From positions 160,001 through 224,000 of the forward strand of contig CAVVPN010000003.1 in the NCBI GenBank assembly GCA_963750165.1: DNA of 64,000 nt, written 5' to 3'. A program made the position numbers and the translations under genes. The stretch comes from an uncultured Gemmataceae bacterium. Lineage in GTDB: Bacteria > Planctomycetota > Planctomycetia > Gemmatales > Gemmataceae. Within the stretch, counting starts at the first letter, position 1; each line of letters starts with the position of its first letter. Below, piece after piece: positions 10,250 through 19,342 of the stretch. The notes below the pieces were generated by a model. That model had not been told where the DNA came from, ran no database searches, and was given only the letters and a program-made list of their open reading frames with translations.

Positions 10250-11704
10250 ATGAACGCCGCGCCGCTGTCGTTACGGGTGCTGGTGATCGATGACGACGCC
10301 GACACCCGCGATAACCTGTGCGACATCCTGGAACTGGATCGGCACCGCGTGGACACCGCCGGCAGCATTGCCGAGGCGCTGGCCCGCGACAACTGGTCCG
10401 ACTACGCCGCCATCCTGCTCGACCGCCGCCTGCCCGACGGCAGCGCCGAGGACTTGCTGCCGCAGTTGAAGCGGCTGGCGCCCGATGCCGCCATCCTCAT
10501 GGTGACCGGCTACGCCGATTTGCAGGGAGCCATCGCGGCGCTGCGCTCCGGCACGGCGGACTACATCCTCAAGCCGATCGACCCGGACGCCCTGCGTAGG
10601 AGCCTGCACCGCGTCGCGGAGCGGCAGCGGCTGCGCCTGGCCAAGGAGCGCAGCGAGGCAGCCTTCAGCGCCCTGGTTGAGGCGGCGCCGTGCCTGATCA
10701 TCATCCTGCGACCGGACGGCACCGTTGCCTACTTTAGTCGCTACGCCGAGGAGGTCACCGGCTACCGCAGCGCGGACGTGCTGGGCCGCGACTTCGTGAA
10801 ACTGCTGCCGCCGGAGAGCCAGGCCGCCGCCGCGGAGCGCCTCAGCGCGGCCGCCGCCGGCACCCCCGTGCGCGCTAGCGAGAGCCGGCTGCTGTGCAAG
10901 CACGGCGACGAACACTGGGTGCTGTGGAACGCGCAGCGGCTGCGTGACTATGAGGGCGAGTCGGCAGTGCTGGTGATCGGCCAGGACATCACCTCGCTCA
11001 AGCGCGCCCAGGAGCAGGCGCTGCAGTCGGAGCGGCTGGCGGCCATCGGCCAGATGATGGCCGGGCTGGCGCACGAAAGCGGCAACGCCCTGGCTCGCAG
11101 TCAGGCGTGCCTGGAGATGCTCGCCCTGGAGGTGCCGGATAAACCGGAGGTTGCGGAGCTGATCGGTCGTATTCAGCTGGCCCAGAACCATTTGCAGCAG
11201 CTGTACCAGGAGGTGCGCAACTACGCCGCGCCGCTGAAGCTGGAGCGCGAGCCGGTCAGCCTGGCCCTGGTCTGGCGCAGCGCCTGGAAGCACCTGACGC
11301 TGGCACAGCCAACGCGCCGGGCGGAGTTGCGCGAGCACACCGCCGGCGTCCGGCTGGAGTGCTTTGTGGACCCGTTTCGGCTGGAGCAGGTGTTCCGCAA
11401 CATCTTCGAGAACGCTTTGGCGGCGTGTACCGAGCCGGTGCGCATCGACATCCACTGTGCGGACGCGGCCCTGGAAGGGCAGCCGGCGCTGCGGGTGGCC
11501 GTGCGCGACAACGGCCCAGGGCTGTCCGGCGAGCAGTGCCGCCGCATTTTTGAGCCGTTTTTCACAACAAAAACCCGCGGCACCGGATTGGGTATGGCAA
11601 TTGCAAGGAGGATCGTCGAAAGCCACGGGGGTCGCATCGCCGTGGGCACGGCCGACGAGCCGGGCGCCGAAATCCTCATCACCTTGCCGCGGACTCCACC
11701 ATGA
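10250..11704 (+). CDS. Hybrid sensor kinase REC-PAS-HisKA-HATPase
   Basis: Receiver (IDDD, LLDRRLPDG, LKP), PAS (EEVTGYRSADVLGRD...GQDIT), H-box AHESGNAL, DNGPG, FFTTK, GTGLGMAI. Confidence 0.9.
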   Translation: MNAAPLSLRVLVIDDDADTRDNLCDILELDRHRVDTAGSIAEALARDNWSDYAAILLDRRLPDGSAEDLLPQLKRLAPDAAILMVTGYADLQGAIAALRSGTADYILKPIDPDALRRSLHRVAERQRLRLAKERSEAAFSALVEAAPCLIIILRPDGTVAYFSRYAEEVTGYRSADVLGRDFVKLLPPESQAAAAERLSAAAAGTPVRASESRLLCKHGDEHWVLWNAQRLRDYEGESAVLVIGQDITSLKRAQEQALQSERLAAIGQMMAGLAHESGNALARSQACLEMLALEVPDKPEVAELIGRIQLAQNHLQQLYQEVRNYAAPLKLEREPVSLALVWRSAWKHLTLAQPTRRAELREHTAGVRLECFVDPFRLEQVFRNIFENALAACTEPVRIDIHCADAALEGQPALRVAVRDNGPGLSGEQCRRIFEPFFTTKTRGTGLGMAIARRIVESHGGRIAVGTADEPGAEILITLPRTPP

Positions 11705-12300
11705 TTGCTTCCCTGCGCGTTGCCGTGGCTGATGATGAGCCGGACATCCGCGCCTACTTCCAACGCATCCTGACGCACCTGGGCCATCAGGTGGTGGCCG
11801 TGGCCGATAACGGCCGGACGCTGGTCGAGGAGTGCCGCCGCACGCAGCCCGACCTGGTCATCACCGACATCAAGATGCCGGAGCTGGACGGCATCGACGC
11901 GGCCCTGCAAATCTACCATGAGCGTCCGGTGCCGATCATCCTGGTGTCGGCTCACAACGAGCCGGAACTGATCGAGCGGGCCGAGGCGGACCACGTCATG
12001 GGCTATCTGGTCAAGCCGATCAAGCAGGCCGACCTGCCGCCGATGATGACGCTGGCGCTGCGGCGCATCGAGCAGTTCCAGGCGCTGCAGCACGAGACGA
12101 CGGACCTGCGGCAGGCGCTGCGCGAGCGGCGGTTGGTCGAGCGCGCCGTGGAAGTGGTGGTGCGGCGGGCGGGCGTCGCCGAGGCGGAAGCGCTGGCACG
12201 GCTGCGGCGGCTGGCCGCGGATCGGCAGCGCAAACTGGCCGAGGTGGCGGACGCGGTCCTGCTGGCCGCGGACGTACTGCCGCCGACCGAGCCGGCGTGA
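11701..12300 (+). CDS. REC-ANTAR response regulator (AmiR/NasT/PdtaR-like)
   Basis: Receiver (ADDE, ITDIKMP, LVKP), coiled coil, then ANTAR-like LRERRLVERA...EAEALARLRRLA...KLAEVADAVL; ATGA overlap. Confidence 0.88.
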   Translation: MIASLRVAVADDEPDIRAYFQRILTHLGHQVVAVADNGRTLVEECRRTQPDLVITDIKMPELDGIDAALQIYHERPVPIILVSAHNEPELIERAEADHVMGYLVKPIKQADLPPMMTLALRRIEQFQALQHETTDLRQALRERRLVERAVEVVVRRAGVAEAEALARLRRLAADRQRKLAEVADAVLLAADVLPPTEPA

Positions 12301-15886: not shown

Positions 15887-16465
15887 TTACAGGTTATCGC
15901 GCTTCTCCTCGACGAGCGTGCGGATGCGCTCGCAGAGCAGGGCAACATCGAACGGTTTCTTGAACGCCTCGCTGAAGCCGTAGTTCACCAGCGTCTCGGG
16001 CGCCGCCTCGTCCTCGGCGGCCAGGGCGACAATCAGCGTCGCCTCGTAGGTCGAGTTGCGACGCAGGTTGGTCGCGATCTGCAGCGCCTCGCCGCGGCCC
16101 ATCGCCAGGTCGATGATGATGGTGTCGGGGTGGAAGCTCTCGGCCTGGATGCCGGCCTCGAAGCCGCTGCTGGCGAACTCGTACTTGAAGTCGTCGTCGA
16201 TCGGCAGCAATTCCTGCACCCGGTCGGAGAACAGCTTCTCAGCACCGATGATGAGGATCTTGTGCAGGCCCTCCTCCTCGAGTTCGCCCAGGGGCATGTT
16301 GTGCTCCTTGAGGAACCGAATGAGGTGTTCACGGGGGATGCGGCGGTCCTGGCTGCCGGGGATGCGGTAGCCACGTAACCGGCCGGAGTCGAACCATTTA
16401 CTGACCGTCCGCGGCGCGACCTTACAGATTTTCGCGACCTGGCCGGTAGTAAAAACCTTTTTCAT
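15887..16465 (-). CDS. Excisionase-like HTH_17 + receiver-like domain regulator
   Basis: MKKVFTTGQVAKICKVAPRTVSKWFDSGRLRGYRIPGSQDRRIP followed by a degenerate receiver fold ending in KKPF; GGAG RBS. Confidence 0.88.
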   Translation of the reverse strand: MKKVFTTGQVAKICKVAPRTVSKWFDSGRLRGYRIPGSQDRRIPREHLIRFLKEHNMPLGELEEEGLHKILIIGAEKLFSDRVQELLPIDDDFKYEFASSGFEAGIQAESFHPDTIIIDLAMGRGEALQIATNLRRNSTYEATLIVALAAEDEAAPETLVNYGFSEAFKKPFDVALLCERIRTLVEEKRDNL

Positions 16466-17090
16466 GGCAGGCACTCCATTCTTGGTAACGGCTGACATCA
16501 CTGCCCGGGGGGCGGCCGCGCGGGCGGCCGCCGTCCGGGTCCGGGGGGTGCGGGAACGCCCACCCGGGGCTCCTGCCAGGAGTCAGCGTCCGTCGGGGGG
16601 AAAACGGCGGGCGCAACCAACGGCTAAACCAGGCTTTCACACCGGCGGCCCGGGACACGGTCTCCGCCTCGGCCTCCGGAGGTTGTGGCCCCTCGGTTAG
16701 TTTGAATCATCGGCAAAACGGCTGACCAAGATGAGAGATAGCCCACACCTTGGGGAGGTTTTGCCAATTCGCCTTCTTGCGCTCATTCTTCCCCTTGGCT
16801 GTATTCCCATACCTGCGCTCGTCTGGCAGACACCCTGCCTTCGGCGCCCGGAGCGCAGACAGACGAACCGGCCCCCAGCGCGCGGCGCGGCGCGCACCAA
16901 TATAGGGGGGTGGGCTGGACGAGCCCGTTCACGGTTGGGGAAACCTGGGCAAACCAGAGAGGTTGCCGGCGGTTGGGCGGAAGTTGTTCAGGAGGTGTGA
17001 CTTCGGAGAGGTCGAGCGCTGCCCGCCGCCGTGAGGATTATACGCGGCGGACTAGTCCGAAAATTCTGAAAAAATGGTTGTAAGTTTCTG

Positions 17091-17118
17091 TTGACACCCA
17101 TCAAGGCTTGTTTATAAT
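17091..17118 (+). promoter_or_regulatory. Consensus sigma70 promoter
   Basis: TTGACA (17091-17096), 16 bp spacer, TATAAT (17113-17118); A-tracts upstream at 17060-17075 (UP-element-like). Confidence 0.85.
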
Positions 17119-17123
17119 TCAAT

Positions 17124-17189
17124 TGTCTCGCCGGTTGGTGGCTTCGGTGATGGGCGACGCCGAAGTTGCTGACGGCGAGACATTTTTTT
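17124..17189 (+). ncRNA. Candidate ~65-nt hairpin small RNA ending in U7
   Basis: Starts 5-6 nt after the -10 box; 10-bp outer stem plus 15-bp inner stem with 6 G.U pairs, then TTTTTTT. Confidence 0.6.
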
Positions 17190-18967
17190 CTAGGACAGCA
17201 AAGCCGGCTAGACAGCTAACCTGGGTTTGGGTTACGCTTTAGCGCCCCAACCCGGCTTTGATACGTAATGTAATTTCGTCCCGCGGTTGGTCCCGTTCGT
17301 CACGGAACGTTACCGAGGCGTACCGCGAAAAACGAGTTGCGTAGCAAAGCCCCCCAACCCAGGAGCTTGCCATGGCCAGGAAGGCGCCCCGCCCCGAACC
17401 CACCTTCACCCAACACCTGGACGCCTTGTACCAGGACTGCCCCGCCTGCCACCGACGGATGTGGTCCGACTACCGGAACGACCGCACCGTCGTCACCCTG
17501 CTGGGCCTGACACGGCTGGTGCTCCACATCCGCCGCTGCCACACCGCCGACTGCCCACGCCACCTGCAGCCCTACCGGCCCGAGGCCGAGGGCCGCCACG
17601 CCCTGCCCCAGCACGAGTTCGGCCTGGACGTCATCGCCCACCTCGGCGCCCTCCGCTACGCCGAGCACCGCTCCGTCCCCGAGATCCACCAGCACCTGGT
17701 CGCCCGGGGCCTGGCCATCGCCGAGCGGACGGTCACCAACCTCCTGGAGCGCTACGACGAACTGCTGGCCGTCACCCTGACCGACGCCGGCCGCCTGCGC
17801 GGGTTGCTGGCCGCGCAGGGCCGCGTCATCCTGGCCATCGACGGCCTGCAGCCCGACGTCGGCCACGAGGTGCTCTGGGTGTTGCGCGACTGCCTCTCCG
17901 GCACCGTCCTGCTGCGCGCAGCCTGTTGTCCAGCCGGCAGCAGGACCTGGCCGAACTCATCGGCCAGGTGCGCGACGGCCTGGCGGTGCCGATCACCGGG
18001 GTGGTCTCCGACGGCCAGCACTCCATCCGCAAGGCCGTGGCCGAAGCCTTGCCCGGCGTGCCGCACCAACTCTGCCACTTCCACTACCTCCGCGAAGCCG
18101 CCCGGCCCATCTACGAGGCCGACCGCCACGCCAAGAAGGAACTCAAGAAGCGCGTCCGCGGCGTGCGGCCCCTCGAGCGCCAGGTGGAGGGCCGCACCGA
18201 CCCCGAGGCCCAGGCCATCCAGGGGTACTGCGACGCGGTCCGCAGTGCCGTGACCGACGACGGCCGGCCGCCCCTGGAAGCGTCCGGGCTGAAACTCCAC
18301 GACCGCCTGAGCGCCGTGGTGGCCAGCCTGGACGGGGTGGCCGAAAAAGGGGCTCCCGAAAGAACTCGTCCGGCTGAGGCTGCTGCTCGTGGCGGCGTTG
18401 GCGGCCACGGCGCCGCTGTGGCCCCCGGTGCGCGTGGCCTTCGCCTGGGTCTGGCAGGCGGCGCACCTGCTGGGCGAACACGGCCCCGGGGTGGCCCCAG
18501 CCGTGCGGCAGCGCCTGGGTGGTCTGCTCGGGGCGATGACCCGCCACCGCGGGCTGGTCGGGGCGCTGGCGAGCGGGGTCGAGCACTTCGTGAAGGTCAC
18601 CCGGAGCTACTGGCCGGGGCTGTTCCACTGCTACGCCGTCGCGGACCTACCGCGGACGAACAACGACCTGGAGCAGTTCTTCGGCAGCCATCGCTACCAC
18701 GAGCGCCGGGCCAGCGGCCGCACGGGGGCGTCCCCGAGTCTGGTGCTCCGTGGGGAGGCCCGCGTGTTGGCGGCCGCGGCGACCCGGCAGCACGTCTACA
18801 CAGCGGAAGAGTTGGCGGAGGCAGACCCGGTCAGGCAGGCGGAACTCCGCCAACACCTGGAGTCCCGCCGCCGCCGCCGAGTCAACCGCACACGGTTCCG
18901 TCGCAATCCCCGGGCGTTCCTCCAACAGTTGGAGGAAAAACTGCTCCAGCCGGCTTTGCTGTCCTAG
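17190..18967 (+). mobile_element. Insertion sequence (~1.78 kb) with a DDE transposase of the MULE/IS256-like clan; family uncertain
   Basis: Terminal inverted repeats CTAGGACAGCAAAGCCGGCT (17190) and AGCCGGCTTTGCTGTCCTAG (ends 18967); the transposase stop lies in the right TIR. Confidence 0.9.
17372..18967 (+). CDS. Transposase in three reading frames (shifts at ~17915 and ~18350)
   Basis: N-terminal Cys pairs (CPAC, CHTADC), LAIDGLQP, VVSDGQ, HQLCHFHYL (CxxH), PRTNNDLEQFF; second shift at GAAAAAGGGG. Confidence 0.85.
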
Positions 18968-18973
18968 TTTTTT

Positions 18974-19342
18974 TTGGACGGCAAAGCCGGCTGGCGCAGT
19001 TCCACCTTCCTGACCACATTCTCTGTTACCAATTCCGCCGCAGTGTAGCTGTGCTGGCGTGTCGCTGCTGCCACCAACCAGTGGGCCTCCCCGCGCAGCA
19101 CCAGACCTGGCGACGCCTCTTTCCGGCCGCTGGCCCGACGCTCGTGCTAGCGCTGACTCTCGAAGAACTGCTCCAGGTCGTTGATGGTCCGCAGCATGCC
19201 GGCGATCTCGTAGCAGTGGAACAACCCCCAACCAGTAACTCCGCGTCCCGCGCACCGGCGGCCAGAGGGTCGCCGTGGCGGCCAGGGCCACCACCAGCAA
19301 CCGCCTCGGCCGGACGAGTTCTGTGGGGAGCCGCCGTCCTGG
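18974..19342 (-). mobile_element. Internally deleted, diverged relic of the same IS in inverted orientation
   Basis: End GGACGGCAAAGCCGGCTGG at 18976; minus strand matches 18351-18434 (LPTELVR...PPVR) and 18601-18967 (LFHCY...NDLEQFFES); other end CCAGGACGGC at 19342. Confidence 0.85.

Follow-up and report, generated by a model that had tools for sequence, protein, structure and literature searches.

An apparently undescribed family of multicopy hairpin RNAs with a conserved apical loop in the order Gemmatales

The stretch of DNA analysed here (64,000 nucleotides from an uncultured Gemmataceae bacterium, hereafter the window) contains a consensus promoter that leads to no host gene, and the question raised by this locus is what that promoter serves. 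The initial annotation had proposed a stand-alone small RNA (sRNA) gene in which A-tracts and the promoter are followed at once by a G.U-rich hairpin and a run of seven T residues. All of these elements were found, and their positions in the window, together with those of the neighbouring features, are as follows.

17060..17090, + strand: A/T-rich UP-like element (family promoters are 57% AT across the 30 bases 5' of the -35 hexamer)
17091..17096, + strand: -35 hexamer TTGACA, from a promoter scan
17113..17118, + strand: -10 hexamer TATAAT, after a spacer of 16 bp, the length most often seen in the family (78 of 127)
17124..17189, + strand: predicted sRNA of about 65 nt, its 5' end paired with its 3' end
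17124..17133, + strand: basal helix, 5' strand, paired with 17173-17182; GC-rich, and also the terminator stem
17135..17149, + strand: upper helix, 5' strand, paired with 17158-17172; six G.U pairs
17150..17157, + strand: apical loop AUGGGCGA, containing the near-invariant core UGGGCGA
17158..17182, + strand: 3' strands of both helices, from the pairing
17183..17189, + strand: intrinsic-terminator U-tract, also present in paralogues
17190..18967, + strand: multi-copy IS (context only), with terminal inverted repeats, CTAG at both ends and a transposase in more than one frame
15887..16465, - strand: divergent HTH_17 and receiver regulator (context)

The promoter (17091-17118) is the single promoter-like site between positions 16400 and 19500, where shuffled sequences gave 0.1 +/- 0.4, and it is one of seven perfect TTGACA-N15-19-TATAAT sites in the 9.6-Mb source genome. 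The A-tracts occupy 17060-17075; across the family promoters no motif was found beyond the -35, the -10 and the A/T tracts. The hairpin closes on the loop ATGGGCGA at 17150-17157, which is presumed to be the functional site, and six of the 15 inner pairs are G.U on the + strand. The + strand fold reaches -40.3 kcal/mol (z -5.73, equalled by 0 of 200 shuffles), compared with -27.1 kcal/mol for the - strand. Judged from its sequence, the sRNA probably starts at 17124-17125, 6-7 nt 3' of the -10 hexamer. In other copies the upper helix is variable and often contains an internal loop. A simple terminator scan of the locus did not list the hairpin and U-tract as a terminator. The U-tract is common to the paralogues and hence native to the RNA, not derived from the IS. 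The initial annotation had not recognised the element as a tRNA, SRP RNA, 6S RNA or riboswitch; Rfam gave no match overlapping the hairpin at E<=10, and ARAGORN gave none at the hairpin for tRNA or tmRNA. Seven other member loci had no Rfam match at E<=1, and the source genome has separate 6S and tmRNA genes.

Downstream of the hairpin lie only the IS, an inverted remnant of a related IS (approximately 18968-19340) and a convergent BON gene, as the initial annotation had stated. The transposase gives a weak NCBIfam match to an IS66 model, far under the cut-off, and near-identical IS copies lie elsewhere in the source genome. Five other copies that were checked likewise begin at CTAG after a run of T or A, so the IS of the window landed at the terminator end. 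The inverted remnant 3' of the IS creates a chance long hairpin (18940-19001) and, with it, spurious miRNA matches. The divergent orientation relative to the HTH_17-receiver regulator, to which the initial annotation had drawn attention, is correct for the window but incidental: the RNA was found within 1.5 kb of the regulator in none of the loci of 29 relatives, and one further relative (G062) has it beside the regulator in the same divergent layout. The same annotation had considered that the hairpin might be the leader or attenuator of a gene deleted here. By crude gene calls, however, the next downstream gene lies on the opposite strand in six of the 13 copies in the source genome and on the same strand in seven, and across 97 representative proteins the neighbours are unrelated apart from clade-level synteny, including an orthologous site 5' of truD that is common to both families of the order. 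The mixed downstream strand and the unrelated neighbours argue that the RNA is neither a leader nor part of the IS.

Several observations were made on the surroundings in their own right. The regulator leader (16466-16480 in the window, and L002-L030 in relatives) contains a conserved GGAGTGCCTGCC-like stretch 5' of the ATG and a recurrent CCCGC further upstream, and may be a conserved leader element. The regulator match contains an in-frame TAG in five of five genomes from a single genus of the sister family (L020-L024). In the source genome (G000), a perfect TTGACA-16-TATAAT site lies about 240 bases 5' of an HTH_17-receiver paralogue of 35% identity (G000:C3:83544). Positions 11701-12300 of the window encode a receiver-domain protein with a C-terminus that we take, from its pattern by eye, to resemble an ANTAR RNA-binding domain. 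Elsewhere in the source genome, the 16S rRNA gene at G000:C11:1138278-1139109 (L340) is interrupted close to its decoding region by roughly 820 inserted bases with a LAGLIDADG-like reading frame.

The hairpin had been taken for a lone sRNA gene. The gene itself stands, but it belongs to a large family of paralogues with approximately 13 copies in the source genome. A BLAST search of that genome with the element returned three more full-length matches, and motif and profile scans raised the number to about eleven. A covariance model built on 11 of these copies (R1) found 12 places in the source genome and, at E<=0.001, matched 68 of 80 Gemmataceae genomes; at E<=0.05 it matched 24 of 27 family genomes and eight of 13 genomes of the sister family. 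A broader model (R2), built on 80 diverse members, was run on 30 chosen genomes, mostly R1-negatives and large assemblies. At E<=0.05 it matched 22 of 22 family and five of six sister-family genomes, two of these matches (in G126 and G036) being short and terminator-sized, and thus it finds the RNA in almost all R1-negative genomes of both families. In the source genome R2 gave 14 matches, from which a perfect palindrome without the conserved loop was removed to leave 13. The copies there are 29-75% identical to that of the window.

Genomes contain between one and about 15 copies, and larger genomes tend to have more (rho 0.89 across 23 related genomes; the best 122-150 candidates were scored per genome and short or weak matches were removed by hand), and at least one copy is kept in small genomes. 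The record of Limnoglobus roseus PX52 (Gemmataceae, Gemmatales) contains eight copies and a Gemmataceae MAG two, while two other planctomycete MAGs contain none. Outside the order, R1 matched none of 149 genomes of the phylum under strict filters with 32 candidates scored in each. A loop-plus-T pattern matched 37 of 152 genomes of the class, but the 30 loci fetched scored at most 16.3 bits. R2 gave weak matches in 13 of 31 genomes outside the order (the best at 29.8 bits), and the eight inspected were terminator-like, seven of them without the loop; one locus outside the order (L591) has the core, a weak hairpin and no promoter. These negatives cover versions with a UGGGCGA-type loop, and a version with another loop would escape them. 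A short core pattern run over genome contigs returned mostly chance matches; the full-length hits among the 80 loci listed were L100 (26.3 bits) and L104 (51.9 bits), the latter with a title that names a betaproteobacterial family, a label judged unreliable and not counted as an occurrence outside the order.

The members have a common anatomy. A promoter core (TTG..TA...T) lies 5' of 85 of 119 distinct hairpins, as against three, three and two in downstream, far-upstream and reverse-strand controls, and the misses include inner array units, which have no promoter of their own; in 62 of the 85 the core ends 32-34 nt before the loop. At metagenome loci it was found in 41 of 69 cases, compared with three in the control. 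The predicted start is the first paired base of the hairpin, the stem is 22.5 +/- 1.9 pairs long with a mean of 3.5 G.U pairs, and the + strand folds better than the - strand in 76 of 82 rows. Compensatory double-change cells number 198 against 43.1 in shuffled data in one alignment (A2) and 437 against 142.5 in another (A3), both alignments being fitted to the covariance model with rows related by descent. Moreover, 93% of stem cells are paired, compared with 37-57% in slid controls, and none of 500 shuffles matches the covariation score. The GC-rich basal helix and U-rich tail of an intrinsic terminator are present throughout A2. Tandem arrays of two to four hairpins behind one promoter occur in four assemblies and one metagenome contig. 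Among four public RNA runs, all from relatives, available as contigs and with shares of <=0.08, one has an uninformative depth of about 4 across the hairpin. The proposal of a stand-alone gene with selection on the structure of the + strand RNA gains support from paralogues and orthologues that have promoters, compensatory changes and U-tails; the strong expression that the initial annotation had also proposed is a prediction.

The loop is the most constant part of the element. All 83 rows of A2 contain the core UGGGCGA; 5' of it stand UGA and a single base that is free or missing (C in 57 rows, A in 11, U in four, G in one and a gap in ten), and the U and G that close the loop are fixed (82 and 83 of 83 rows, respectively). 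The most divergent in-order set was obtained from 37 rows by removing eight from outside the order, one short match and one palindrome; in the remaining 27 full-length rows the core is intact in 24 and changed by one base in three, and the 5' half of the loop is variable. These loop variants suggest that non-canonical pairs may extend the stem as far as a UGGGC pentaloop. A loop-blind scan of the source genome for a promoter, a long single hairpin and a T-tract returned 39 modules, eight with this loop, so its conservation is not purely an artefact of the search. The scan also picked out a further promoter-hairpin-T module, whose loop differs (G000:C12:580217, + strand), possibly another small RNA. 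Taken together, the elements very probably constitute a real family of RNA genes: a multicopy, order-wide and apparently undescribed hairpin sRNA of the Gemmatales.

The gene is also carried by phage. A pattern scan of viral sequences gave three members among 38 loci, and a looser pattern gave none among the 80 loci listed. Complete genes, with promoter and tail, are present on three viral contigs, beside a portal gene (on a contig where this neighbourhood could be host flank), a clamp-loader-like gene and an integrase. Several chromosomal copies lie within islands or prophage-like regions. In one genome (G003), a prophage-like control region (L360:1619-2796) comprises a repressor, a copy of the RNA, a small reading frame and a divergent csrA-like gene. 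All three RNA-bearing phage-like elements with enough sequence have a csrA-like gene; a fourth, a 7.9-kb fragment, has none, and the RNA was found within 10 kb of none of 80 viral csrA genes. That phage contigs have the gene suggests a role in taking over the host. As a separate observation, one copy in the source genome (L538:9300-17000, G000:C11) lies in an island beside genes that, by eye from their translations, look like a DISARM-type system (phospholipase D-like, DUF1998-like and helicase).

What could such an RNA do? A rod of fixed length and free sequence that shows one conserved loop, multiplied by duplication and in arrays, has the anatomy of a dose-dependent, trans-acting RNA. The leading explanation, put forward tentatively and at something short of an even chance, is that the family consists of sibling sRNAs that titrate an RNA-binding protein, the predicted partner, through the loop. 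RNA polymerase would start 6-7 nt after the -10 hexamer, make one rod-like hairpin of about 22 pairs and stop at the U-tract, and this one hairpin would act as terminator, end protection and display scaffold. Many copies, and arrays of two to four hairpins, would raise the dose of the loop in trans. The displayed loop would then bind and titrate the protein as Csr/Rsm RNAs do CsrA, with another motif. Transcription, the RNA ends, action in trans and the protein partner are all predicted here from comparative sequence data. Four properties favour titration of a protein: the free, apparently looped-out position, the fixed closing bases, the deep divergence of the paralogues, and the lack of enrichment of the loop complement near starts. 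By analogy, the single free position 5' of the core would resemble the looped-out base of a protein site. According to one review, sibling RNAs that sequester a protein diverge further than those that act by pairing (PMC4211561). Against titration, the 5' half of the loop changes in divergent copies while a contiguous block of 7-8 nt stays, as a pairing seed might. Furthermore, leaders of the source genome show no enrichment of the sense loop motif, and in all 31 regulator orthologues of the order the 170 nt next to the start lack it, so that the analysis yielded no mRNA targets for the supposed protein. In a loose-end consensus from two RNA runs (X3 and X14) the sense motif had stood directly 5' of the SD in relatives of the regulator gene, and this candidate was dropped on the 0 of 31 orthologues.

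The candidate partners in the source genome are seven CsrA and five RRM homologues; no match to FliW was found in this 93%-complete genome. All 41 genomes searched within the order encode CsrA homologues. CsrA itself gains no direct support as the partner: the loop lacks GGA, none of the 80 viral csrA loci has the RNA, and the correlation between the two counts is gone once genome size is held (partial rho -0.09 across 23 related genomes). A crude scan of the source genome for CsrB-like GGA clusters gave no convincing candidate among the matches listed. A more specific version of protein titration, which we consider a conjecture and doubtful as it stands, is that the Gemmatales have a Csr-like circuit with its own code, in which a regulator would read GGGCG-type loops, a one-hairpin RNA scaling with genome size would titrate it, and phages would carry the gene in order to set its free level. 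Such loops could be read by an RRM protein, by a CsrA paralogue whose specificity has changed or by a protein of unknown fold.

The serious rival is that these are sibling base-pairing sRNAs, in which the G-rich loop is a seed for a C-rich, GUCGCCCA-like site that lies either in a few mRNAs or in a second small RNA, much as in FopS or the cuckoo RNAs but with the opposite base bias. We regard this as possible, if on the unlikely side. It draws its strength from the contiguous core of 7-8 bases, which is kept although the bases 5' of it vary, and enrichment tests would miss a small set of targets. There is also a precedent in FopS, described in the available portion of the report as a pairing family of 12-15 copies that occurs on a phage as well (PMC11697453). 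Between -45 and -16 of 2565 SD-bearing genes, TCGCCCA occurs 15 times where 8-11 are expected and GTCGCCC 26 times where 11-15 are expected. However, these excesses rank 919 and 190, respectively, of 16384 7-mers and are mild and unconvincing, and in five windows near the start the 8-mer complement takes ranks between 371 and 677 among 752 permutations. In the source genome TCGCCCA lies at -6 in one of 5876 predicted starts, and no exact complement is present in its 16S (first 1451 nt), 23S, 6S or tmRNA. The seed would, moreover, be short and constrained in a tight loop.

A connection to the translation machinery is highly improbable. Here the loop would mimic or bind that machinery, either by imitating the 23S P-loop and so acting as a decoy for a ribosome factor or by pairing with tRNA 3' ends or fragments. 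A region of the 23S rRNA of the source genome, which we take to be the P-loop, resembles the loop plus one extra G; the 5' end of its tmRNA contains GGGCGA; four of its tRNA genes (three Val and one Ile) end in CGCCCA; and one copy of the RNA, orthologous in both families, lies just 5' of truD. By our estimate, however, a ten-base match with one edit is expected by chance somewhere in rRNA at approximately 0.15-0.2, which places the likenesses to 23S, the tmRNA 5' end and the tRNA ends within chance. The pairing register is unlike that of the rRNA helix, and the CGCCCA tRNAs, whose acceptor stems are already paired, offer no complement to the invariant A of the core.

Equally hard to sustain is a cis-acting element. 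On this view the hairpin would be a leader or conditional terminator, and an antiterminator recruited by its loop would serve the gene that follows (the IS at this locus, or a gene since lost). The anatomy of the hairpin is that of a terminator, and some copies are closely followed by a gene on the same strand, such as truD (58 nt) and asd (142 nt). The six convergent downstream genes in the source genome, the unrelated neighbours and the existence of tandem arrays all speak against it; in addition, the hairpin begins at the predicted +1, which leaves no room for an alternative structure. Least credible of all is a selfish or neutral dispersed repeat of the REP or MITE kind, spread by mobile elements and without cellular function: copy number does follow genome size and some copies do lie in islands or prophage-like regions, but pairing, promoter spacing and loop are kept at 29-75% identity, the + strand is the better fold, the element is retained even in small genomes and, in both families, at an orthologous site, and no shared terminal repeats or transposase link was seen.

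This variant design of sRNA family in the Gemmatales appears to be new. A search of the open literature on sRNAs of Planctomycetes, Gemmata and Gemmataceae, and on the loop letters, found no description of the family, subscription papers being outside its scope. The main text of PMC5737381 and of bioRxiv 10.64898/2026.09.15.751765 contains no planctomycete term, and in the accessible text of three Breaker-type genome screens there were no occurrences of 'planctomycet'. CsrA is widespread in Planctomycetota and variable in activity, according to part of one account (PMC13443453), and a passage in a survey suggests that Planctomycetes may control CsrA via FliW rather than RNA (PMC4682653); the Gemmatales are rich in CsrA paralogues, and the source genome gave no FliW match. 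An order-wide RNA with up to about 15 copies and a single conserved loop could serve as bait for finding the missing post-transcriptional regulator. The eight copies in the cultured L. roseus PX52 make the family amenable to culture work, and its design is unusually minimal, one hairpin being transcript, terminator and display site at once.

Among known systems, the cuckoo RNAs of Alphaproteobacteria (CcsR1-4, Rfam ar14) are also modular hairpins; their loop is invariant, and they occur singly or in tandem at several loci per genome. Their loops are C/U-rich anti-Shine-Dalgarno seeds on short stems, whereas the Gemmatales loop is G-rich on a rod of about 22 bp and has no Rfam match. The Rhodopirellula-1 motif is likewise a planctomycete-derived hairpin motif outside Rfam; as far as the accessible material goes, its conserved bases flank a variable loop of 1-71 nt, it is classed as cis-regulatory, and the rows and consensus of its supplementary alignment, compared by eye, share no sequence with the Gemmatales RNA (PMC2864571). 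FopS of Bacteroides, in the part of its description already cited, is similarly lineage-restricted, with 12-15 dispersed paralogues, an occurrence on phage and a host with RRM proteins, but it has a single-stranded 5' seed and a terminator and pairs with mRNAs, whereas in the Gemmatales RNA the 5' end is paired and the apical loop is conserved (PMC11697453). The Csr/Rsm RNAs (CsrB/C and RsmX/Y/Z, which sequester CsrA/RsmE) are stand-alone and often multiple genes of divergent sequence with a conserved hairpin-loop motif; the two groups also have in common an optional looped-out base after an A, hairpin arrays and CsrA in the host (41 of 41 genomes). They differ in that the Gemmatales core is UGGGCGA in 83 of 83 rows, without GGA, the motif that, in the accessible text of PMC4005645, defines CsrA binding. 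Furthermore, most Gemmatales genes are a single hairpin that is also the terminator, with no csrA linkage and no Rfam match. Overall, although it fails the GGA test by which they are defined, the Gemmatales family would, by analogy, work most like the Csr/Rsm RNAs.
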